Assembly: GCA_938086785.1 (NCBI GenBank)
Contig: CALKCM010000014.1
Coordinates: 2,467 to 66,466 of the forward strand
Direction of reading: 5' to 3'
Origin: an uncultured Bacteroidia bacterium
Lineage (GTDB): Bacteria > Bacteroidota > Bacteroidia > NS11-12g > UBA955
Length of the DNA stretch: 64,000 nt
Shown here piece after piece: positions 1 through 16,384 of this stretch. Positions within the stretch are counted from its first letter, which is position 1. The number at the start of each line of letters is the position of its first letter. The notes under the pieces were generated by a model that saw only the letters and a list, made by a program, of their open reading frames with translations, had not been told where the DNA came from and made no database searches. The translations under genes were made by a program, and so were the position numbers.

Positions 1-642
1 ATCTCTATTCCAAACATCATCCTTTACCCCTTGAGATATTTGCCTGTTTCCTGAACTACTCTCTTGATTTTCTAATCTATTTAAAGAGGCATTCCGCTTT
101 CTCCATTTATGATAATCTTTTTCAGAGATGAAGGTATCAATTCTTATCCAATCTCCGGTTCTTTCAAGTGATTCTAAGGCTGCTTTACTACTGAGATGCA
201 AAAACTCATCATAATTTAATCCAAAAGCCTCTTGAAGGTTAACCTTATGTATTGCTTGTTGAGAGGATACTTCATCATCGCTATATATCAAATCAACTTG
301 AGACTTAATGATATTTGTAGTTTCGGATGCTAAGTCAGTATGTTTTAAGAAGTCTCCTTCCTCAATCCCAAATAATAATTTTAGAAACCGAATATTGCGT
401 AATTCCTCTTCTGAAATTAGGTTGTCATTTAAAACCACTTTTAAGTAAAACATCAGAAGAGGTAAGCTATTTTTTCTTAAATTATTTTTATCATTCGGAC
501 CATCAGCACTTAAGACATTCATACAATCCATTCTTGTTGTTTGAATCCCCTTTTCTGAAATAACTTGGGCTAAATCTATTGATGATTTATCAAGTTCTTG
601 AGATGATATAATGTAACTAAAAACGTGCTCTAAATCCTGCAT
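1..642 (-). CDS. Probable HNH endonuclease with helical (TerB-like) N-terminal region; 3' end runs off the window
   Basis: Not in the ORF track because there is no stop in the window. My manual translation from ATG at 642 is open for 214 codons and ends ...GNRQISQGVKDDVWNRD, the R-x-I-x3-VK-x2-VW-x-RD segment that precedes the CxxC of HNH nucleases. Confidence 0.65.
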   Translation of the reverse strand, partial: MQDLEHVFSYIISSQELDKSSIDLAQVISEKGIQTTRMDCMNVLSADGPNDKNNLRKNSLPLLMFYLKVVLNDNLISEEELRNIRFLKLLFGIEEGDFLKHTDLASETTNIIKSQVDLIYSDDEVSSQQAIHKVNLQEAFGLNYDEFLHLSSKAALESLERTGDWIRIDTFISEKDYHKWRKRNASLNRLENQESSSGNRQISQGVKDDVWNRD

Positions 643-1034: not shown

Positions 1035-1271
1035 TTAATCAAAAAAAAGAACAATTAGAATTACAGATAAAACTATTAATCCTAAACTGACAGGGATAAC
1101 TAAATAAATATAAAATGATTCTATCTTACTCCTGTTTCGAGTCATAAATAAAGGATATTTATTCGAAAAATAATCTAAAATACTATTTTGTTGTTTCAAT
1201 AAAAAAAAGGCATTTAGAAAGAAAAAGTACGAAAAAATTATTGATGTTGATAGTCCTAAAATATAATCCAT
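1035..1271 (-). CDS. Small hypothetical membrane protein (two TM segments)
   Basis: 78-aa ATG ORF with two hydrophobic stretches, co-oriented with its neighbours. Confidence 0.5.
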   Translation of the reverse strand: MDYILGLSTSIIFSYFFFLNAFFLLKQQNSILDYFSNKYPLFMTRNRSKIESFYIYLVIPVSLGLIVLSVILIVLFFD

Positions 1272-1602
1272 AAATTTTGATTGTAAAGTTACAATAATTC
1301 CTATGAAAATATAAATGAGATTTCAGAAATCAAGCGCTTCCGTATCACTGTCACTTAGAGGGTTTTTTAACCAACGAGATTACAAATAAGGTGTTGACCC
1401 TTCCACTTCAATGACAATTTCTTCGCCTTTGGCTAAATGTTCATTTATTCTATTCAAAATGTCGGTTATCTCATTTTCCTCTTCCATACCGCTGAATTAA
1501 CAAATTAATGAGAGTCCCACACTTCAAAGTTTTGTTCTAAGGTGAAAAGACAAAATATGGTGTGAATTATTTGGCTACTTTTGTGAATCGAAGCTCAAAA
1601 TT

Positions 1603-2933
1603 ATGATTAAGAAAAGCATTGCTAAATTAGTTGGTTTAAAGAAAGATGAATTTGATTTGCTCGTAAAATCAGGTCAAATTCAACTACAATCAGCAAGACT
1701 CATTCCGTCACATAAGACGGGAGATGAGATGGCACTCACTTCAATTTTTATGAGTACCTTAAGGCTTGTCAAAGAGTTCAGGGATAACTTATTCAAGTCG
1801 ATTAAGCTAAGTAGAGCAGGGAAGGTTTATTTTTATACTGAGGCTTGTTTCCCTGACATCAATAAGTGCAGAATAGATGGGTTAGTAATTGTTGTAACAA
1901 AGGGAATTATTGCTGATGCTGCTTTTTTGAAATGAAGAATAAAGGTAATCAGATTGATGCCAATCAAATTGAGTCTTACCTTGAAATATCTAAGAAGCTT
2001 AAGGTAAATAAATTGGTGACTATTTCTAATGAATTTACATCAGAGCCAAAGATTTCGCCTTTAAAGATTAGAGTTCCAAAGAATATCTCATTGCTCCATT
2101 TCTCTTGGACTTATATAATAACGATAGGTCAACTTCTCCTATTCAAGAACGATACAAACATCGAGGATGAAGACCAAGTAGAAATTATGTCAGAGGCTCT
2201 ACATTACTTTGAGAACCCTTTATCAGGTATATCGGGCTACTCAAAAATGAAACCCGGTTGGAAGGTGTTGTGTGAATCGATAAGAGCGCAGAAACCAATG
2301 AAAGCAACTGATGATTACTTAGAGGATGCTTTATTAAGTTGGTATGAAGAAGAAAAAGACATAGCCCTTCTGCTAAGTCGAAAGTTAGGTGTACTTGTGA
2401 AGTCAACAATAAGAACTCCCACTTCAATCAAGAACGATGCCAAGAGACTAATCAAATATCATAGGATTCAGGGGTTGCTTTCCATTAAGAATGGTGTATC
2501 AGATATCAAGGTAATTTCAGACTTTGAGAGAAGGCTTGTATCAATGAGTATAAAGCTTATACCACCTTTAGATAAAGGGAATAAGGCTAAGATTACTTGG
2601 ATTACGAAACAGTTAGAAAAATGCAGCAAGAAATCACCTCAGGAGTTTGGTCATTTAATTAGTGAGATTTGGATTGAGGCGGATATAAAGTTTGCCAAAG
2701 AAAATATTAAAGTGAAATTAACAGATATTGACTCCTTAAATGAACTTACAGTCGGAAAGGTTATCCAAGGGTATAATGTAACAATTAGAAGAAGTTTTGG
2801 AGCTAAGTTCGCAAGCGCCAAGGGTTATATTCAAATGATTGAGCCAATGATTTTAGAGTTCTATGAGCTGATTGTCCAACATTCGAGCAGTTGGACTAAA
2901 CCTGCACCTAAAATTGTAAAAGATGCAGAGTAA
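1603..2933 (+). pseudogene. Frameshifted PD-(D/E)xK nuclease-like protein (stress-response/restriction-like family)
   Basis: ORFs 1603-1935 and 1932-2933 join if the T6 run at 1923-1928 is T7, giving RIDGLVIV...AAFFEMKNK (D...ExK motif). TACTTTTG promoter at 1576-1583. Confidence 0.65.
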
Positions 2934-3063
2934 TTTACTAAGCTCTCTAAAAATCTTCTAAGCCTGACATAAGATATCACTCAATGCCATATTATTCTGC
3001 CTTCCGATACTTTTATGCCTATGGGCTTATTTTGGTAGAAGTTGTATAAGGCAAGGCATAACC

Positions 3064-3150
3064 CCTAAACCTAATTTACTAACCCTAAACATTTGGGGGT
3101 AAACTATATATATTTGTGGTATGAAAAAGATGTTATTCTTGGTATTTGCA
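3064..3150 (+). repeat. Promoter + signal-peptide module P, copy 1 (copy 2 at 6281-6367)
   Basis: 87-bp near-identical direct repeat cctaaacctaatttactaaccctaaacatttgggggtaa...tatatttgtg(g/a)tatgaaaaagatgttattcttggt(a/t)tttgca; contains TATATTTG (-7 box) and encodes [10 protein letters not shown]. Confidence 0.95.
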
Positions 3151-3911
3151 ATGGCTAATACAGTGGTTTACGCTCAGTCAAAAAAGCAGCAAATTATTAT
3201 TCTTAATGACGAAATTATTACTCTTAATAATAGGGTTGATAGCTTTAGATTAGCTCTGTCTAATGAGACACAAATAAAACTCAAGAATGAAAAAAGAGAT
3301 GCACTAAAAATTAGTGATTTGGAGAGAGAAAATAAGGAACTAAAGACTGTCAATGACAATTTTTCTATACGAAACTCTGCGTTGCAAGAAAAATATGATG
3401 AACTGCTTCTCAAATTAGAAACAGCACAAGAGAATCTTTCTATTGCTAGTGATACAATATCTAAAATGCGAAAGAAAATAAAAATGGATAAGTCTAGACA
3501 CGAAGAGGCTCAGGTTAATCAAACAAATAATCTTGAGACAAATAAAACATTACTTCCTCAGTCCATTGATTACGATGGTAAGCCTGACTTAGAATATACA
3601 ATGAGATTATCGCGCTTGATTCTTATGACGAAAACGATTATGAGGGATCATATATAAGAATGAAGTTGAATGATAAGGAGGTGATACTAAAAATGCAAAA
3701 ACATTATTCCTCAAAAGCTAGAAGGGTATATTCTAATAGTGATTATGTGGTTACATTTGATGGAATTATTTATGGTAAGTGTGCTGGCGAAGGAGCACAA
3801 TATTTAACTGGAAAATTATTGATTCAGACTAGTTCAGATCAAAATAGTATCACATTTAAAGGCTCCGACGCGCTATATTCTAGCAAGGAATGTCAAGAAA
3901 TGAGCCAATAG
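3121..3911 (+). pseudogene. Secreted coiled-coil protein, split by a frameshift near 3590-3600
   Basis: ORF 3121-3657 has a signal peptide and coiled coil. The frame of ORF 3660-3911 is open back to 3588 (YNEIIALDSYDENDYEGSYIRMKL...), so a single indel joins them. Confidence 0.55.
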
Positions 3912-3976
3912 GATTTTCGGGCTCCGGTTGCCCGTTAACTCCGGTAAATCACCCTGTTTGGGGCACTTGTCCCTAG
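3902..3976 (+). pseudogene. Orphan DUF285/BspA C-terminal cap
   Basis: Translates EPIGFSGSGCPLTPVNHPVWGTCP*, matching the 6084-6227 cap and the C-termini (PxWGTCPP*) of the two intact DUF285 genes. Confidence 0.9.
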
Positions 3977-3996
3977 AGACTAATTAAAAATATACC

Positions 3997-4024
3997 AAGC
4001 CTCTTCTTCGTAAGGGGCTTTTTT
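3997..4024 (+). terminator. Rho-independent terminator
   Basis: aagcctctt-cttcgt-aaggggctt hairpin followed by a T-run. Confidence 0.75.
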
Positions 4025-4086
4025 ATGCCATCCAATTGCCCAATTACCTCTATTTAGGTATATATCTATAAAAGGATATAATAGCC

Positions 4087-4369
4087 ACGGCAAATAAAAC
4101 GGGAATCAAGTATGGCGGTAGACAAAAAGGTACAGCAAGGCTTTTACAGGGCTTTTAGAAGGCAATATGGGAAGATTACAAGAGTTGCTCGATAAAGTCG
4201 CTGAAAAGAACCCTCAGAACTAATGTTAAAGCTATCAGAGTTTGTTCTTCCTAACCTAAGAGCTATCGAGGTTAATAATGAGCCAGAGGATAAGCATACC
4301 TCTCTAAATATTAATATAATTGATACTGGAGTTCCTTTGGCGAGTTGTGAAGCTGATGTGGTTGATTAG
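4087..4369 (+). pseudogene. Degraded small-terminase-like (GGRxKGT motif) gene, copy 1
   Basis: Begins with ACG (possibly a mutated ATG), then ANKTGIKYGGRQKGT; continues through frameshifts as GLLEGNMGRLQELLDKVAEKNPQ...LKLSEFVLPNLRAIEVNNEPEDKHTSLNINIIDTGVPLASCEADVVD*. Confidence 0.6.
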
Positions 4370-4402
4370 GTCACTCCCCCCTAAGATTATATATTTGTCA
4401 AT

Positions 4403-5812
4403 ATGAAGTTTTCCAGTAAAGTAATACCGCTTATCCTATTATTCTTTTTTGCAAATGATGTTTTAGCACAAAAAATCATTAAAGCTAAAAAAGTAACCAC
4501 ACACAATGGTCTGGTTTGTTATGTGAAAAAATTAACTCCAGTTACTGGAAGAGTTTCAGAGGAGTTTCAAAACATAAAACAGCTAAAGTCTGAAACTGAC
4601 TATATAGATGGTAAGAAAGAGGGTTTGTATAAAGAATGGGATAAAAAAGGGAAGTTAAAGATTAATGTAAATTATATCAATGGTTTAAAAGATGGCTTAT
4701 GTAAGGAGTGGTACCATAACGGGCAGATAAGTAAAGAACAACATTATAAAGACGGTAAGAAAGATGGCTTATGTAATGAGTGGTCCTATGACGGGCAGAT
4801 AATTAAAGAACAACATTATAAAGACGGTAAGAAAGATGGCTTACATAAGGTTTGGCGCGAAAACGGGCAGATAAAGTCTGAAATTAACTATTTAGATGAT
4901 AAGATAGACGGCCTCTGTAAACGCTGGTCAGAAAACAGCGGAAAATTAACGGAAAACCGAAACTACAAAAATGGGCTTCCCGTTGAAGTGAGTGCTTACG
5001 AAATAGAGTTTAAAGGTTCAGATTACTTGTCTGAACTTTGTTATTACAAAAATAAATCAATTCTTTTCACTGGAAGAGTTTCAGAAAAGTTTCTAAACAT
5101 AAAACAGCTAAAGTCTGAAACTGACTATATAGACGGTAAGAAAGATGGCTTACATAAGGTTTGGTTTGAAAATGGCAATTTACGAGCTCAGGGTAATTAT
5201 AAGGAAGGTAAACGAGTGGGTTTGCATAAGACTTGGTCCAAAAACGGGCATTTATTTTTTGAGGGTAATTATAATGAAGGTAAAGAAGTGGGAGTTCGTA
5301 AATTCTGGCACGAAAACGGGCAGTTATACGGAGAAGAAAATTACAATGATGGTATGAAGGTTGGTTTATGGAAGGAGTGGTACGAAAACGGGCAGATAAA
5401 GAAGGAGGAAAATTACAATGATGGTATGGAGGTTGGTTTATGGAAGGAGTGGTACGAAAACGGACAGATAAAGAAGGAGAAAAATTACAATGATTATACA
5501 GAAAAGGAGTGGTATGAAAATGGGAAGGTAAAACCAAAAACCTATACCTTCGATGAAGCAAATAGGTTTATGAAAAGTCGTTGTAGAAAAACTAACCATA
5601 CTATATTAAAGACACATAGTTACACTTTTGAAGGAACTGTGGTATATTGTTTTCTTACTTGTAACTCCGATATGTTAGACCCCTATAAGAGAGTTGCCCC
5701 TAAAAATCAGTCAGTATGTATTAGTATGATATCTGAAAAAAAACTTGAAGTTATAGCAGCTGATTGTGGCTCTCAAGATAGAAAACTACGAGATTGGGAA
5801 AATCTTTTTTAA
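4403..5812 (+). CDS. Secreted MORN-variant repeat protein (YwqK-like family)
   Basis: Signal peptide, many GxKxGLxKxWYxNGQI repeats and a Cys-containing C-terminal domain; TATATTTG promoter at 4390-4397. Confidence 0.9.
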   Translation: MKFSSKVIPLILLFFFANDVLAQKIIKAKKVTTHNGLVCYVKKLTPVTGRVSEEFQNIKQLKSETDYIDGKKEGLYKEWDKKGKLKINVNYINGLKDGLCKEWYHNGQISKEQHYKDGKKDGLCNEWSYDGQIIKEQHYKDGKKDGLHKVWRENGQIKSEINYLDDKIDGLCKRWSENSGKLTENRNYKNGLPVEVSAYEIEFKGSDYLSELCYYKNKSILFTGRVSEKFLNIKQLKSETDYIDGKKDGLHKVWFENGNLRAQGNYKEGKRVGLHKTWSKNGHLFFEGNYNEGKEVGVRKFWHENGQLYGEENYNDGMKVGLWKEWYENGQIKKEENYNDGMEVGLWKEWYENGQIKKEKNYNDYTEKEWYENGKVKPKTYTFDEANRFMKSRCRKTNHTILKTHSYTFEGTVVYCFLTCNSDMLDPYKRVAPKNQSVCISMISEKKLEVIAADCGSQDRKLRDWENLF

Positions 5813-5838
5813 AAAACAGTCTTATTGCTCCACTTATA

Positions 5839-6039
5839 GGCAAGGTCCAAGAACTCTTCGATAAAGTCGCTGAAAAGAACCCTCAGAAAGCATTAGAATT
5901 ACTCTTAAAACTATCTGAATTTGCTTTACCTAAACTACGAGCTATTGAGGTTAATAATCAGCCAGAGGATAAGCATACCTCACTGAACATAAATATTATT
6001 GATACTGGAGTTCCTTTGGCGAGTTGTGAGGCGGATTAG
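5839..6039 (+). pseudogene. 5'-truncated small-terminase-like remnant, copy 2
   Basis: ~200-bp diverged direct repeat of 4169-4369 (GKVQELFDKVAEKNPQKALELLLKLSEFALPKLRAIEV...LASCEAD*). Confidence 0.7.
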
Positions 6040-6083
6040 TCTTTAAAATTGAATAGAGACAATTCATACTCAGTAATGATAAT

Positions 6084-6227
6084 ATGTTTGATAGGGCATC
6101 GTCCTTCAATCAAGATTTAACTCAGTGGTGTGTGACTTTAATTCCAAAGGAGCCACTTCTTTTTTCAGGGTCTGGTTGCCCTTTAACTCCGGCAAACAAA
6201 CCCGTATGGGGCACTTGTCCCCCTTAA
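6084..6227 (+). pseudogene. Orphan DUF285/BspA last repeat + C-terminal cap
   Basis: In-frame MFDRASSFNQDLTQWCVTLIPKEPLLFSGSGCPLTPANKPVWGTCPP*. Confidence 0.9.
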
Positions 6228-6231
6228 AAAT

Positions 6232-6282
6232 AGAATAGGCTTTATTCCCAATTACTGACAGTAAACCATTGGGCTATATACC
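6232..6282. repeat. Non-coding element E, truncated copy 1
   Basis: agaataggctttattcccaattactgacagtaaaccattgggctatatacc, matching the 7116, 14471 and 16084 copies; runs directly into module P. Confidence 0.9.
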
Positions 6283-6367
6283 TAAACCTAATTTACTAAC
6301 CCTAAACATTTGGGGGTAATATCTATATATTTGTGATATGAAAAAGATGTTATTCTTGGTTTTTGCA
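6281..6367 (+). repeat. Promoter + signal-peptide module P, copy 2
   Basis: Direct repeat of 3064-3150; TATATTTG at 6326-6333, ATG at 6338. Confidence 0.95.
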
Positions 6368-7111
6368 GCAATTGTAATGTTGGCAACAACATCAAGTAGT
6401 TTTTCAGGAGATGTTGGAAATAAGAATAGTAACAATAGCGAATGTATTAAGTGTAATGAATTTGAGGTTGGTGAAACTTTCGAGCTTGATGGTGTCACCT
6501 ATACGGTTGCGGATAGGAAAATGTTAGATGAAGCATTCGAAAAAGGTAAAGACTTGACAAAATATTGCACATCTAAAGTGGCTGATATGAGTAGTATGTT
6601 TACGAGAGCTAAATCCTTCAATCAAAATATTGGCAGTTGGGATGTGAGTAATGTGACTGATATGAGTGGGATGTTTTCGTTTGCTACATCCTTCAACCAA
6701 GATATAGGCAATTGGGATGTGAGTAATGTAACTAATATGGGGGGTTTGTTCTTACAAGCTGCATCCTTCAACCAAGATATAGGCAATTGGGATGTGAGTA
6801 ATGTGACTGAAATGAGTATTATGTTTTATAAAGCAACGTCCTTCAACCAAAATATTGGCAATTGGGATGTGAGTAATGTGACTAATATGTATGGTATGTT
6901 TGGGTTTGCTAAACTCTTCAACCAAAATATTGGAAATTGGGATGTGAGTAATGTGACTGATATGAGTAGGATGTTCTATGATAATCCATTATTCAACCAA
7001 GATTTATCACAGTGGTGTGTGTCAAAAATCCCTTCCATCCCGGTAAAATTTTCTTATATAAGCGGATTAACTCGGGCAAACCAACCTATATGGGGTACTT
7101 GTCCTCCTTAA
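6338..7111 (+). CDS. DUF285/BspA-family leucine-rich-repeat surface protein
   Basis: Signal peptide, CxxC N-cap, five 25-aa [25 protein letters not shown] repeats (75-bp period from 6584), terminal repeat and WCV...PIWGTCPP cap. Confidence 0.95.
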
Positions 7112-7115
7112 AGAC

Positions 7116-7244
7116 AGAATAGGCTTTATTCCCAATAACTGACAGTAAGCCATAGGGTTATATACCCGTTCTGAGCAAAGCCTTCAAATAAGAAGCCTAT
7201 CTTTTAAAGGGGTGTGGGGGTGTTAAACAAGAAAAAATAGTTCG
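7116..7244. repeat. Non-coding element E, copy 2
   Basis: Aligns by eye with 16084-16208 and 14471-14583 (tatacccgttctgagcaaag..ttcaaa.aagaag...ggtgtt.aa.aa.aaaa.tagttcg). Confidence 0.95.
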
Positions 7245-7255
7245 TTTTTTTCACG

Positions 7256-7281
7256 TTTTACTGACAGTTTTTACTGACAGT
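7256..7281. repeat. Tandem 13-bp direct repeat (ttttactgacagt x2), integrase arm-site-like
   Basis: Perfect tandem ~110 bp from the tRNA-fMet 3' end; the TTACTGACAGT core also occurs within element E. Confidence 0.8.
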
Positions 7282-7349
7282 TTTGTATATTCGTATAAAT
7301 CGTCAGCCCTTTAAAACCGGGTGATACGCAAAAGTAGAGTAGATGTCAT

Positions 7350-7378: not shown

Positions 7379-7389
7379 GTATTTACTAG

Positions 7390-7461
<72 letters not shown>

Positions 7462-12131: not shown

Positions 12132-12230
12132 AATGGCTTTAAAAATTTGACACAAAATTAACTCCTGAATAGCTCTCAAACAAAACAACGGTTTTAAAAA
12201 ATATGGCTGAAACTTATTAGTTAAAGAACC

Positions 12231-12295
12231 TAAACCGATGCCTTGTGACATAAAAAAACCTATAACCGAATGTGAAACAATCAATTACAGGTTTT
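12231..12295. repeat. tRNA-Glu-flanking end repeat R, copy 1
   Basis: 55-bp core 12241-12295 is identical to 14615-14669 and 16252-16306. Confidence 0.97.
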
Positions 12296-12404
12296 AGTGG
12301 TAGAGGCTGTGAGGCCGAAATCAAATTTGTAGACTTATGCCATATTTAAACCAAATCCATTGGTTCGATAAATGTTTTGCAGTTATAAAACTGCTGGGTA
12401 TTGT

Positions 12405-14276: not shown

Positions 14277-14470
14277 TTTCGCAAAGTTATACAAAGTATG
14301 TTCTAGGGAATAGCCCATTTGCAGCCCATATATAGTAGAATATTATTTGAGTAAATATGTTGTAAAAACGCATCATAGATTTGTGGTATAAAAAATATAT
14401 TTGTATTTTTTCTGTTGTTCGGGATAGTTCTCTTCGGCTGTAAGAAAAAAGATGTTGAAACCTCCGATAA

Positions 14471-14681
14471 TCCCAATTACTGACAGTAAACCATTGGGCT
14501 GTATACCCGTTCTGAGCAAAGCCTTCAAATAAGAAGGCCTTATTATAAAGAATACGGAGGTGTTGAATAAGAAAAGTAGTTCGGATTTTTTTGGGATTTA
14601 TCTGTAAACCGATACCTTGTGACATAAAAAAACCTATAACCGAATGTGAAACAATCAATTACAGGTTTTTAAGTGTAGCCC
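14471..14681. repeat. Element E (copy 3) + end repeat R (copy 2) + partial tRNA-Glu 3' end (att-like)
   Basis: ~210-bp direct repeat of 16095-16318, ending in aagtgtagccc, which is the tRNA-Glu 3' end and flank. Confidence 0.95.
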
Positions 14682-14809
14682 CTAAGGTTCGATTCTCGAA
14701 CACTTTTACTGAGAACTTAAGCGAGCTGTACAACTTGAAACATTTACTTATAGAGCAAGAAATCATTGGTGATGGTGGCGGTTCCCTTTATTTAAAAGGA
14801 TTTCCTTAA
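14675..14809 (+). other. Putative att junction / recombinase C-terminal tail remnant
   Basis: Reads VAPKVRFSNTFTENLSELYNLKHLL..., starting exactly where the tRNA antisense reads VARRGIEP; gtagccc-c-ta-a-gg vs gtagccc-g-ta-g-gg, and tcgaac is retained. Confidence 0.5.
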
Positions 14810-14963: not shown

Positions 14964-16070
14964 ATGAAAAAATTATTTTTAGCAATATTAGTTTTAGGTG
15001 CAATTCTAAATGGCTGCAAAAAAGAAGAGGTTGTAGAAACCACAAAGGAAATAGTTAGCACCGCTTCAGACTTGCCTCAAGTTACCACTGGGAATCCAAT
15101 AGTTACAGATACTGCTTTAATTTTATCTGGAGAAGTTACATTTACTGATGGAGACGATTCTACTACAAGAGGAATCTGTTGGAGTGAAAGTCCAAATCCA
15201 ACAACAAACGACCAAAACTATCTGGATACCGCAACTGGTTTAGGTACTTTTAGTGTTAATGTATTCTCTCAACTTGAACCAAATACAAATTATTATATTC
15301 GAGCATTTGCTGAGAACTCGGTAGGTAAAGTATACGGAAATGTGGTTTCTTTCACTACAAATTATTTTAATCGTAATAATGCATATATAAATTCAAAAGG
15401 TTGCTTGGAATGTAATAAATACGAAGTAGGAGACACTTTTACAATACAATATACTAATTATATAGTTGCAGACAGAGAAATGCTTGATGACGCATTACAA
15501 AATGGCGAAGATTTAACAAAATATTGTACATCCAAAGTGACTGATATGTCAAATATGTTTAATGGCGCTCAATCCTTCAATCAAGACATAGGCAATTGGG
15601 ATGTAAGTAATGTGACTTCTATGGGTGGTATGTTTCATATGAATGAATCCTTCAACCAAGACATTGGCAACTGGGATGTAAGTAATGTGACTGATATGTC
15701 AGCTATGTTTCAGATTACTCAATCCTTCAATCAAGACATAGGCAATTGGGATGTGAGTAATGTGACTGATATGTCTGGTATGTTTACAGCAGCATACGTC
15801 TTCAATCAAGACATTGGTAATTGGGATGTAAGTAATGTGACTAATATGGTTATTATGTTTGCATCAGCATACGACTTCAATCAAGACATAGGCAACTGGG
15901 ATGTAAGTAATGTGACTTCTATGCGAGGGATGTTTAATATGAATGAATCCTTCAACCAAGATTTAACTAAATGGTGTGTAAAAAATATCGCTGTAATGCC
16001 AGATTTTTTTTCCGCAAATAGCAATTTTTCAATTACATATCATCCAGTATGGGGCACTTGTCCCCCTTAA
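14964..16070 (+). CDS. DUF285/BspA LRR lipoprotein with N-terminal Fn3-like domain
   Basis: Lipobox LNGC; RGICWS..PNPT...LEPNTNYYIRAFAENSVG; five 25-aa repeats from 15543 plus terminal repeat and HPVWGTCPP cap; TACTTTTG promoter at 14952-14959. Confidence 0.95.
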   Translation: MKKLFLAILVLGAILNGCKKEEVVETTKEIVSTASDLPQVTTGNPIVTDTALILSGEVTFTDGDDSTTRGICWSESPNPTTNDQNYLDTATGLGTFSVNVFSQLEPNTNYYIRAFAENSVGKVYGNVVSFTTNYFNRNNAYINSKGCLECNKYEVGDTFTIQYTNYIVADREMLDDALQNGEDLTKYCTSKVTDMSNMFNGAQSFNQDIGNWDVSNVTSMGGMFHMNESFNQDIGNWDVSNVTDMSAMFQITQSFNQDIGNWDVSNVTDMSGMFTAAYVFNQDIGNWDVSNVTNMVIMFASAYDFNQDIGNWDVSNVTSMRGMFNMNESFNQDLTKWCVKNIAVMPDFFSANSNFSITYHPVWGTCPP

Positions 16071-16083
16071 AAATAGAATATCG

Positions 16084-16312
16084 ATAGGCTTTATTCCCAA
16101 TTACTGACAGTAAAGCATCGGACTATATACCCGTTCTGAGCAAAGTATTCAAACAAGAAGCCTATATTTTAAAGGGGTGCGGGGGTGTTAAACAATAAAA
16201 ATAGTTCGGATTTTTTTGGGATTTATCTGTAAAACGATACCTAAAACGATACCTTGTGACATAAAAAAACCTATAACCGAATGTGAAACAATCAATTACA
16301 GGTTTTTAAGTG
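16084..16312. repeat. Element E (copy 4), tandem 12-bp repeat (taaaacgatacc x2, 16230-16253) and end repeat R (copy 3)
   Basis: Direct alignment with 7116-7244, 14471-14670 and 12231-12295. Confidence 0.95.
16263..16307 (-). terminator. Terminator hairpin downstream of tRNA-Glu (also present in the R copies at 12252-12295 and 14626-14670)
   Basis: Minus strand ACCTGTAATTGA/TCGGTTATAGGT stem with G-U pairs, followed by a U-tract. Confidence 0.7.
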
Positions 16313-16384
16313 TAGCCCGTAGGGGAATCGAACCCCTCTTACATGGATGAAAACCATGCGTCCTAGCCGATAGACGAACGGGCC
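16313..16384 (-). tRNA. tRNA-Glu (TTC)
   Basis: GGCCCGTTCGTCTATCGGCTAGGACGCATGGTTTTCATCCATGTAAGAGGGGTTCGATTCCCCTACGGGCTA cloverleaf. Confidence 0.97.

Follow-up and report, generated by a model that had tools for sequence, protein, structure and literature searches.

Conserved 5' and 3' modules around different interiors in tRNA-adjacent gene cassettes of an uncultured marine Bacteroidota genus

The erp genes of Borrelia burgdorferi (ospE/ospF/elp) carry an upstream homology box before bodies of independent origin; natural recombination between members is frequent, with insertions and fragments at some loci, and the sections of the source cited here describe this recombination as evolutionary, none having been seen in culture or infection (PMC10016077). 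In Staphylococcus aureus, the lpl genes are paralogs arrayed in tandem within a genomic island. Their conserved unit of evolution consists of the 3' part of one ORF, the intergenic sequence and the 5' part of the ORF that follows, and homologous recombination is described as causing deletions, conversions and translocations and as bringing ORFs into new combinations (PMC2568036; Tsuru & Kobayashi 2008). For proteins with PARCEL repeats, Roske et al. (2010) proposed horizontal gene transfer, intragenomic shuffling and untargeted ORFs that serve as 'reservoirs' of variant repeats (PMC2996958). The rAID-1 arrays of Bacteroidales are described as having integron-like intergenic repeats (10.1101/471110).

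The window analysed here is a 64,000-nucleotide stretch of contig C14 of a metagenome-assembled genome (MAG), and its positions 3064-7300 would be one of several tandem arrays of secreted-protein gene cassettes that an uncultured genus of marine Bacteroidota carries beside tRNAs. This adds a new case to a route already known for diversifying secreted proteins, with no sign of programmed switching. Each cassette consists of a promoter and leader block (P), a variable body and a conserved 3' block. The body is a coiled-coil stalk with one of many unrelated heads, or DUF285/PARCEL repeats, or both fused, and the DUF285 3' block comprises the last repeat and C-cap, followed by a terminator and/or a TTACTGACAGT box. 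We favour, with a probability of about 0.7, homologous recombination and gene conversion in such tandem arrays, with orphan caps left as scars. The arrays appear to work like erp and lpl. As in erp, one conserved promoter/operator and leader block stands ahead of independent bodies; however, erp genes lie on cp32 prophage plasmids, one locus per plasmid, whereas these arrays are chromosomal, tandem and beside tRNAs, and Erp proteins are lipoproteins whereas most members here have a putative type-I-like leader. The conserved 3' module belongs to the window system. The two share no sequence homology; the analogy is one of mechanism, not membership. The unit at 6183-6367 (end of a cap, box and P) would behave like the 3'-intergenic-5' unit of lpl, although in lpl recombination takes place at a central conserved region between two variable halves, and here it would involve conserved ends around a variable, often non-homologous interior. 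Two complete genes of the window encode PARCEL-repeat proteins (TIGR02167, PF03382), but the sections of the PARCEL paper on which we draw describe no shared promoter/leader block, orphan C-caps, coiled-coil fusion or tRNA-adjacent arrays (PMC2996958). Low-GC, co-directional arrays of small genes with repetitive intergenic sequence are also a feature of rAID-1 and integrons, as far as the cited part of that account goes (10.1101/471110); the defining 5' XerD-like recombinase of rAID-1 was not found on the window's contig.

The genes starting at 3121 and 6338 do open with a common 87-bp promoter and leader, as the initial annotation had stated. P1 (3064..3150, plus strand) and P2 (6281..6367, plus strand), each made up of a 57-bp upstream promoter block and the first 10 codons, are 94% identical (82/87 bp, BLAST E 3e-33), and the sequences outside them are unrelated to each other. 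The putative -7 box of P1, TATATTTG, ends 4 nt before the ATG and is of the TAnnTTTG type, which we take to be the Bacteroidetes promoter consensus; the promoter block also holds a near-palindrome, CCCnAAA-CA-TTTnGGG. Besides the window, 12 further copies of P were identified across nine contigs, giving a set of 14 (two from the window, two from the same-genus assembly G001 and 10 from eight metagenome contigs). Downstream of P there is a stalk-family gene in 11 cases and a DUF285-lipoprotein gene in three; upstream, the box with a short spacer was found in four cases, the box with a long flank in two, a GGCATAAACAGAAG type in five and partially in one more, and the type seen near position 3000 of the window in two. 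With four or five upstream contexts and two downstream gene types, the idea that shared ends enclose different interiors was upheld. P starts at almost the same position in four contexts; selection acting on a promoter or operator could also explain this, as could a site-specific process.

The gene behind P1 (3121..3911, plus strand) belongs to a family with a signal peptide, a coiled-coil stalk and a variable head, here of the class ending ...KECQEM. Three-frame translation of the locus gave reading frames at 3121-3657 and 3660-3911 (open from about 3585), split in the MAG by a 7-bp deletion near 3592-3597, with the cap at 3902-3976 in the third frame. Intact homologues of 259-284 aa (P0003, P0021 and P0024) align across both ORFs and end in QEMGNG, the gene here in QEMSQ; AlphaFold gave a helix at 2-138 and no prediction for the head. 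Seven extra bases at 3592-3597, restoring one frame, were present in one contig each from runs X2, X4 and X5 and absent in X1, the likely source run. The restored gene still ends at TAG 3909-3911, 10 nt within cap1, which is therefore untranslated. Cap1 (3898..3976, plus strand) is the remnant of a DUF285 3' end (…EPIGFSGSGCPLTPVNHPVWGTCP and stop) with 79% identity to 6146-6221. Together with downstream sequence (3934-4029) it is 79% identical to the cap and terminator of the intact DUF285 gene of contig L026 and 73-83% identical to DUF285 3' ends in G027, G032 and G016. The terminator hairpin and T run at 3997..4020 (plus strand), recognised by terminator scan and by the L026 alignment, would come from the lost DUF285 gene, and the same alignment shows the TTACTGACAGT box, in decayed form, 3' of it. 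The 3' end of the 3121 gene had been said to run straight into a DUF285 cap: a cap-like stretch is indeed there, but the locus spans three frames and the cap does not share the frame of the gene.

Downstream lie two copies of a 105-aa gene, X, which were compared with the copy of X that is intact in G027 (L002 1489-1806, minus strand). X1 (4094..4369, plus strand) is a pseudogene without a start codon and with 25-bp and 10-bp deletions; X2 (5835..6039, plus strand) is 5'-truncated, lacking about the first 35 codons, has an early stop and shares 92% nucleotide identity with G027, a member of another family. Between them, flanked by the direct repeats 4166-4357 and 5835-6036, stands a gene for a 469-aa secreted MORN_2-repeat protein (4403..5812, plus strand; PF07661, E 1e-38). 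Cap2 (6084..6227, plus strand) is, as previously described, an orphan last PARCEL repeat and C-cap that is still in frame, with 47 open codons; there is no P upstream, and its Pfam DUF285 match (E 0.0036) falls under the family cut-off. Positions 6204-6237 match 16047-16080 in 34 of 34 positions, so that the exact identity noted earlier stands, and it stops at both ends. Contigs of run X2 link DUF285 repeats to 6099/6102 of cap2, and complete genes with a cap2-type end therefore exist; one X2 contig has clustered changes inside cap2, at 6155-6173. The remnants cap1, cap2, X1 and X2 are all 3' parts on one strand. A spacer with a 30-bp TTACTGACAGTAA…TATATAC box (6235..6282, plus strand) joins P2 directly. 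The unit 6183-6367 is 91% identical to L022 over 185 bp, and box plus P, from 6240/6241, recurs in L019 (96%, 85 bp, to 6324), L024 (94%, 128 bp, to 6367) and L013 (87%, 127 bp, to 6366); L013 and L023 contain long flank/P hybrids with the junction at GGGGGT.

P2 opens a complete DUF285/PARCEL gene of 257 aa (6338..7111, plus strand; PF03382, E 3e-69; TIGR02167, E 2e-33), the product of which lacks the lipobox Cys (SSSF, against LSSC in the L026 version) and has an AlphaFold pLDDT of 81.6 for residues 34-257. A second complete gene, for a 368-aa DUF285 lipoprotein (14964..16070, plus strand), has its own promoter and leader, and genes resembling it in N-terminus, PARCEL repeats and WGTCP cap occur in G016, G032 and G027. 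A six-frame scan of the 1.54-Mb MAG found WG[TS]CP four times, only in the window (3959, 6207, 7091 and 16050), and not in the two other DUF285 ORFs of the MAG (C18 and C22). This bore out the count of four caps against two complete cap-bearing genes.

Alternative combinations of P, interior and cap, which the initial annotation had led one to expect, exist in the population. Contig L026 differs from window positions 1117-3033 at 13 sites in 1917 bp (99.3% identical left flank), has a 6-bp indel and nine further changes over 3034-3150, and after P carries a DUF285 lipoprotein gene that is intact, encodes 420 aa and is 82% identical to 6281-6965. A separate Logan contig, from run X2, likewise parts from the left flank at 3034, and its sequence picks up again within DUF285 repeats (side 47). 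The near-identity of L026 stops about 30 bp before P, not within it, and cap1 is only 79% like the L026 cap; the two haplotypes are therefore separated by more than one event, and the crossover may have been elsewhere than in P. The right end of L026, past the repeated long flank (tRNA-Arg), may have arisen by a join during assembly. In L022 (375 aa), P0030 and P0053, P, stalk, DUF285 repeats and cap are fused in one frame, with a common junction between …AESKKST and CIKCNEY. The modules, their reuse and their alternative combinations in the population are shown by comparison of short contigs, with no event observed directly. Population joints were matched at 90% likeness, with other loci or organisms a possible source, and for one of them, 3313 to 6488, the side is only 28.

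Between cassettes, likeness is maintained in the 3' block, the spacer and the P that follows, and ordinary homologous recombination and gene conversion can therefore exchange, duplicate or delete bodies. Exchange would take place within an array, between arrays or with DNA of related strains, and where homology is absent illegitimate joins would provide the second crossover. A stalk-plus-head gene would have taken a slot where a nearly identical strain carries a P-DUF285 lipoprotein gene. It ends just inside the old cap, which would persist as the scar cap1, and would later have been disabled by the 7-bp deletion. Cap2 would be left over from the 3' end of a further DUF285 gene that lost its 5' part when the X/MORN segment arrived. 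The orphan caps are best read as scars, and the products would probably act as surface or periplasmic binding proteins. An origin of P1, P2 and the caps by local tandem duplication and subsequent decay, with ends inactive in exchange, is unlikely. It would fit the pseudogenised remnants, the broken 3121 gene itself and the presence of only two P copies and four caps in the assembled MAG. Against it, P is 94% identical in front of unrelated bodies, P and cap-box-P units occur with other bodies in nine contigs, and the in-frame fusions and the L026 replacement are productive new combinations.

The array closes with a box and long flank (7119..7260, plus strand; 84-89% identical to 16084-16217, 14468-14592 and C4:135-269), and its boundary is a tRNA-Met (7389..7461, minus strand; ARAGORN and Rfam). 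The long flank with a tRNA-proximal repeat is found at 14468..14700 and again at 16084..16311 (both plus strand), so that the second DUF285 gene stands between direct repeats, the latter copy adjoining tRNA-Glu (16312-16384, minus strand). The order DUF285, cap, terminator, long flank, repeat and tRNA-Glu recurs in G027, from a different family, and the intergenic element, kept across two families, adjoins tRNA-Met, tRNA-Glu, tRNA-Arg and tRNA-Met/Ala. A repetitive conserved element at cassette borders and array ends, with a 13-bp palindrome inside the box, in a region with a G+C of 0.32-0.36 compared with about 0.39-0.42 further on, and with the 14964 gene enclosed by its direct repeats, could be the site of an unlinked or unassembled recombinase, as in integrons or rAID-1. 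Such site-specific capture is unlikely, however, as the box is absent from five or six of the 14 P upstream contexts and neither covariation nor a stable fold was found for the box/long flank element. In G027 the long flank is the ordinary spacer between DUF285 and tRNA-Glu, which fits segmental duplication rather than a dedicated attachment site. C14 has no match to an XerD-like or other tyrosine recombinase; the MAG has three, on C7, C3 and C4, and the only one nearby (C4:495-1554) is frameshifted and lies inside an island that split a tRNA-Met. The MAG is 70% complete, and an unlinked recombinase may be missing from it.

Programmed cassette variation, in which orphan caps would be silent donors from which expressed genes receive copies, on the model of pilS/pilE, vls or VLR assembly, is very improbable. 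Variable interiors enclosed by conserved 5' and 3' brackets would suit it, and ongoing conversion would fit both the open frame of cap2 with its 34-bp identity to the cap at 16050 (cap4) and the clustered patch in one X2 contig. The silent-donor idea was nevertheless not supported, since all that the orphans hold is the conserved last repeat and cap, which offer almost no diversity, and cap1 is decaying and out of frame with its box decayed. The comparison with antigenic variation and VLR assembly is likewise not supported: every cassette examined carries its own promoter, with no single expression site, a search around P found no inverted repeats, and no linked recombinase was found. No promoterless variable donors were found, and contigs of run X1 on unique stretches of the window show zero differences from it. 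A MAG contig chimeric across repeats is hardly credible, for although the MAG is in 22 contigs, arrays lie at contig ends (the start of C4; L024 at the start of a 127-kb contig) and summed depth on P and cap2 is 4-7x that of the flanks in X1, the unique parts are tiled by X1 contigs without differences, X4 and X5 contigs from other studies cover the cargo-cap1 junction, five differences between P1 and P2 keep exact repeats short, and the same architecture occurs in G001 and in JGI and ENA contigs.

Head diversity was assessed in 80 stalk-family members (71 database matches and nine translated from loci), of which the last 90 residues were classified. This resulted in 12 head classes with at least two members and five singletons. 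Eleven of the 12 classes were found behind the …VFA[LMI]ANT[VL]VYAQ leader, and six different leaders precede one single head class. The leader types may follow species, by concerted evolution, or be shuffled as well. Searches of representative heads with Pfam and NCBIfam, and of six neighbouring proteins with PADLOC, gave no immunity-family or defence matches. Three stalk-family members, which between them show two leader types, all have 7074 nt as the length of their longest contig and may come from one contig.

The initial annotation described a promoter and leader block shared by the genes starting at 3121 and 6338. This block, hereafter P (P1, 3064–3150; P2, 6281–6367), spans 57 bp of upstream sequence and the first 10 codons; its two copies are identical at 82 of 87 positions, are the only ones in the metagenome-assembled genome (MAG; 1.54 Mb in 22 contigs, 70% complete), and lie in loci that are unrelated both 5' and 3' of the block. 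Six-frame scanning of the entire MAG identified four WG[TS]CP caps, all inside the window, and the 34-bp identity claimed between 6204–6237 and 16047–16080 was exact. These checks confirm the repeats as real and place them well outside chance expectation. The orphan cap at 6084–6227 (cap2) retains an open frame, as proposed; this frame has 47 codons, and its DUF285 match was sub-threshold (17.5 bits). The window corresponds to G000:C14:2467–66466, and its first 16 kb have a G+C content of 0.32–0.36, compared with about 0.37–0.43 in the rest, and the sequencing runs containing the stretch were marine or seawater metagenomes.

Membership of the DUF285 family (PARCEL is the NCBIfam name of its repeat), defined by 25-residue tandem repeats that score higher than the cut-offs of the family models, was found for the products of 6338–7111 (PF03382, 230.6 bits with a cut-off of 25; TIGR02167, 113.8 bits with a cut-off of 30) and 14964–16070 (222 and 107.7 bits, respectively). 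No DUF285/PARCEL match was obtained with the ORFs 3121–3657 and 3660–3911, and the 3121 gene is a non-member. The fold model of the 6338–7111 protein was confident (pLDDT 81.6, pTM 0.77); when it was compared with the PDB by Foldseek for a solenoid (LRR-like) fold, no match at E ≤ 0.001 was obtained, most of the weak rows listed (E 0.1–1) being leucine-rich-repeat proteins, and a sequence search of the PDB revealed no relative. The C-cap belongs to the DUF285 family far outside this genome, as the alignment with a cyanophage protein (46% identity) extends to residue 256 of 257 and phrog_35701 is a 78-position profile spanning the last repeat and cap only. At 6398–6406, the lipobox cysteine is replaced by phenylalanine (…TTSSSFSGD in the complete DUF285 gene vs …ATLSSCSGD in locus L026), and the 6338–7111 product may perhaps no longer be lipidated.

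The interior of the 3121 gene is a coiled coil as initially noted, with P followed by a conserved leader and then repeats of the RVDSFRLALS type. The initial observation was real but partly misread, as this gene does not run into a DUF285 cap; three frames are present instead (3121–3657, 3660–3911 and the cap, 3902–3976). When Logan contigs of four runs were aligned to the stretch, 7 extra bases at 3592/3597 were found in one contig each of runs X2, X4 and X5 and in none from run X1, which is probably the source sample; with these bases, frames 3121–3657 and 3660–3911 merge into one. Homologues P0003, P0021 and P0024 (259–284 aa) align over both ORFs. Their C-termini read …KECQEMGNG, whereas that in the window is …KECQEMSQ*, its stop being 3909–3911, so that the join to the cap remnant falls within the last three codons. 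Cap1 (3902–3976) is out of frame and, judged from the reading frames, is not translated. It is best read as the remainder of a DUF285 gene of the kind occupying this slot elsewhere, based on its position and on its shared terminator type, which caps 2–4 do not have. An annotation as '3121 gene with a DUF285 cap' calls for caution, the stretch consisting of a gene with a frameshift and, behind it, a scar, with no chimeric protein.

A search with residues 1–110 of the protein encoded at locus L024 resulted in 71 proteins. These define an unnamed family, hereafter the stalk family, composed of a signal peptide, an RVDSFRLALS-repeat coiled coil and a variable head of ~120–200 aa. The last 90 residues of the 71 proteins, together with 9 translated from loci, fell into 12 classes with at least two members and five singletons. 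The leader …VFA[LMI]ANT[VL]VYAQ was found with 11 of the 12 head classes, and a single head class was paired with six different leaders. The leader types may follow species through concerted evolution or may themselves be shuffled; three stalk members, which between them have two leader types, each had 7074 nt as the longest contig listed. Pfam and NCBIfam searches with 12 head representatives gave nothing above cut-off for 11 of them; the 313-aa head class matched NF046077, 'M949_RS01915 family surface polysaccharide biosynthesis protein'. An AlphaFold model of P0021 from a five-row alignment comprised one long helix (residues 2–138), residues 133–266 being unusable (pLDDT ~30). A PDB sequence search with the head gave chance-level rows only, and ESM Atlas searches with heads provided leads only (unnamed clusters at 0.87–0.92 and, for the commonest head, DUF1131 at 0.91). 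When 121 genomes of the family were searched, stalk proteins occurred in the MAG itself (G000), in the same-genus genome G001 and weakly in G052, and in no others. We infer localisation and function of the stalk and DUF285 proteins from their leaders only.

The ~25-residue stalk repeats containing RVDSFRLALS number from one (window) to four (locus L022), with further examples in locus L013 and protein P0033, and this varying number is apparently a second source of length variation. The weak homologue in G052 (L030; G052:C231:1–742, minus strand), from another genus, has a different W/Y/N-rich head that may resemble the Fibrobacter succinogenes major paralogous domain. Just 5' of the window start, G000:C14:767–1516 (minus strand) encodes a 249-aa secreted protein with a leader, a coiled coil and a small Cys-rich head; it has the same build as the stalk family, but its leader is unrelated and a P block is absent.

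Scanning for a 32-nt P pattern identified 10 copies on eight metagenome contigs and, in the genome collection, two on a G001 contig. Including the two of the window, 11 of 14 P copies precede stalk-family genes and three precede DUF285-lipoprotein genes, in four or five different upstream contexts. In G001, P stands before each of two tandem stalk genes (258 and 274 aa) with different C-terminal domains; the pair is bounded by two repeated intergenic elements, the box and the long flank, and adjoins tRNA-Met/tRNA-Ala. Alternative combinations of P, interior and cap, the population-level counterpart of the proposed exchange, were looked for and found in loci L026 and L022 and in proteins P0030 and P0053. 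Locus L022 encodes an intact 375-aa protein consisting of P, leader, stalk, DUF285 domain and WGTCPP cap, and its junction …AESKKST|CIKCNEY also occurs in P0030 and P0053, with fewer repeats. Locus L026 differs from window 1117–3033 at 13 of 1917 positions; divergence begins at 3034, ~30 bp before P, with a 6-bp indel and nine further changes to 3150, and P is followed by an intact 420-aa DUF285 lipoprotein gene whose cap and terminator are 79% identical to window 3934–4029. Because cap1 and the L026 cap are only 79% alike, several events appear to separate these haplotypes, the population-level variants being represented by short metagenome contigs, in which different strains and variants of one clone look alike. 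A contig of run X2 also departs from the left flank at 3034 and picks up again in DUF285 repeats (side 47). Contigs of runs X1 and X2 pass from DUF285 repeats into the cap1-type terminator (7030 to 3997 and 7054 to 3935), and others of run X2 join repeats to the last repeat of cap2 (6678 to 6099 and 6901 to 6102); these joints were called at 90% likeness, with other loci or organisms as a possible source.

The stretch that L026 covers at 99.3% (1117–3033) includes an overlapping pair of ORFs (110 and 333 aa; 1603–2933), for which Pfam, NCBIfam, PHROG and PADLOC gave no match, and excludes the HNH-motif protein gene that they adjoin (1–642, minus strand).

At the 3' side of each cassette is a terminator and/or the 30-bp box (TTACTGACAGTAA…TATATAC), and the box is followed either directly by the next P or by the long flank, which closes the array beside a tRNA gene. 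The unit of cap end, box and P (6183–6367) recurs in L022 with 91% identity, and its box and P part in L019 (96%), L024 (94%) and L013 (87%); L013 and L023 carry hybrid elements that pass from long flank to P at GGGGGT. Long flanks adjoin tRNA-Met (7389–7461) and tRNA-Glu (16312–16384) in the window, tRNA-Arg in L026 and G001 contig C278, and a tRNA-Met/Ala pair in G001 contig C95 and contig C4 of the MAG. Contig C4 starts with the 3' untranslated part of one more cassette, so that the arrays are under-represented in the MAG; contig depth in run X1, when summed, is 4–7-fold higher over P and cap2, which is compatible with under-representation and is not a measure of copy number. G027, a genome of a different family, has the order of window 14964–16384, in which a DUF285 gene with its cap and terminator precedes the long flank, the repeat and tRNA-Glu. 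This suggests that the long flank was originally the spacer within an old DUF285–tRNA-Glu neighbourhood and was copied elsewhere. Similar DUF285 lipoprotein genes are present in G016 and G032.

The intergenic element as a whole is ~140–230 nt long and occurs in several copies per genome, with the box followed by TTCTGAGCAAAG… and then GGGGGTGTT…TAGTTCGGATTTTTTTGG (across two families of the order, alignment columns are 74% identical on average). Copies are located at 7119–7260, 12228–12313, 14468–14700 and 16084–16311, at G000:C4:135–274, and in L014, L017 and L033–L036. A terminator-like 'tRNA-proximal repeat' often comes after the element, which is usually beside tRNA genes (exceptions: G027 C6 and G039). 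An Rfam search of the long flank found nothing beyond the tRNAs, and RNAalifold of 11 copies (plus strand) gave −4.4 kcal/mol and no compensatory pairs. The second DUF285 gene lies between direct repeats of ~230 bp (14468–14700 and 16084–16324; 85% identical), with a third, partial copy at 12228–12313, and this arrangement looks like stepwise accretion of segments beside tRNA-Glu.

The interpretation of the initial annotation found support as regards modular reuse and exchange of gene parts, and not as regards a programmed cassette system. The mechanism of exchange may have a site-specific component. In a more far-reaching reading, the arrays would be a dedicated diversification locus, in which a shared frame of promoter, leader and optional stalk is combined across the population with more than 12 interchangeable heads, PARCEL solenoids included, and new cassettes are captured beside tRNAs by a putative recombinase using box and long flank as its site; if true, marine Bacteroidota would have an integron-like system for their envelope proteins, plausibly phage- or grazer-driven, but we consider it improbable. 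Integron and rAID-1 arrays have repetitive intergenic recombination sites between co-directional genes of low G+C; here, a repeated box and long flank lie in a region of low G+C, but the box is absent from 5–6 of the 14 P upstream contexts, and neither folding nor covariation favours a structured site. In rAID-1 arrays, a XerD-like tyrosine recombinase (at least 44% identity) stands at the array head; a PF00589 search found none on C14, the contig of the window, with the three matches of the MAG at C7:77383, C3:120430 and C4:1042, an absence read in a 70%-complete MAG with arrays at contig ends. PADLOC identified no defence system among six neighbouring proteins. The analogy with cassette-based antigenic variation (pilE/pilS, vlsE, Mycoplasma vsa), which involves one expression site, promoterless variable donors, a dedicated recombinase or inverted repeats, and frequent switching within a clone, is not supported, as nothing indicates a programmed system: no inverted repeats of at least 14 nt surround P1 or P2, the tyrosine recombinases are on other contigs, each of the 14 P-linked genes has a promoter block of its own, and the orphan caps, suggested to be silent donors, both carry the conserved last repeat and cap only, with no variable sequence.

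Modular exchange between conserved ends has closer parallels elsewhere. Published accounts describe one promoter/leader before bodies of diverse origin, natural recombination being frequent, in Borrelia erp genes (PMC10016077), and a conserved unit of '3' part + intergenic + 5' part of next ORF' with recombination reshuffling the ORFs in the Staphylococcus aureus lpl cluster (PMC2568036). The arrays show the erp pattern of one promoter/leader with differing bodies, and they match the conserved unit of lpl. With P before both DUF285 and stalk bodies, 12 head classes and in-frame fusions, they belong to the erp-like multigene families with conserved promoter/leader, a functional class rather than a homology family. 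For DUF285, Roske et al. had earlier argued for horizontal gene transfer, intragenomic shuffling and 'reservoir' ORFs (PMC2996958). The present case ties the stalk family to PARCEL/DUF285 proteins and suggests, at the population level, diversification of secreted or envelope proteins in free-living marine Bacteroidota, with promoter and leader (and stalk) constant and heads exchanged in flexible islands adjoining tRNAs.

Further remnants lie between the cassettes. A small gene X, encoding 105 aa with the N-terminus GGRQKGTPNK…, is intact in G027 (L002 1489–1806, minus strand) and shares 92% nucleotide identity with window 5835–6036 across families. The window has two decayed copies, one at 4094–4369 (start codon lost, two deletions) and one at 5835–6039 (~35 codons missing at the 5' end), which bracket a MORN_2 gene. 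Gene X looks recently mobile; its phage links are weak (two PHROGs without known function and the initial 300 bp of a contig from an uncultured Caudoviricetes phage). The four remnants, cap1, the two X copies and cap2, are all 3' parts on the plus strand, which fits repeated replacement from the 5' side. Outside the window, G000:C4:372–5607 contains a partial tRNA-Met copy, a frameshifted tyrosine integrase (495–944 and 976–1554), ~4 kb of genes without known function, and then intact tRNA-Met and tRNA-Ala genes; this region is an island that integrated into and split tRNA-Met, adjoining the end of a cassette array.
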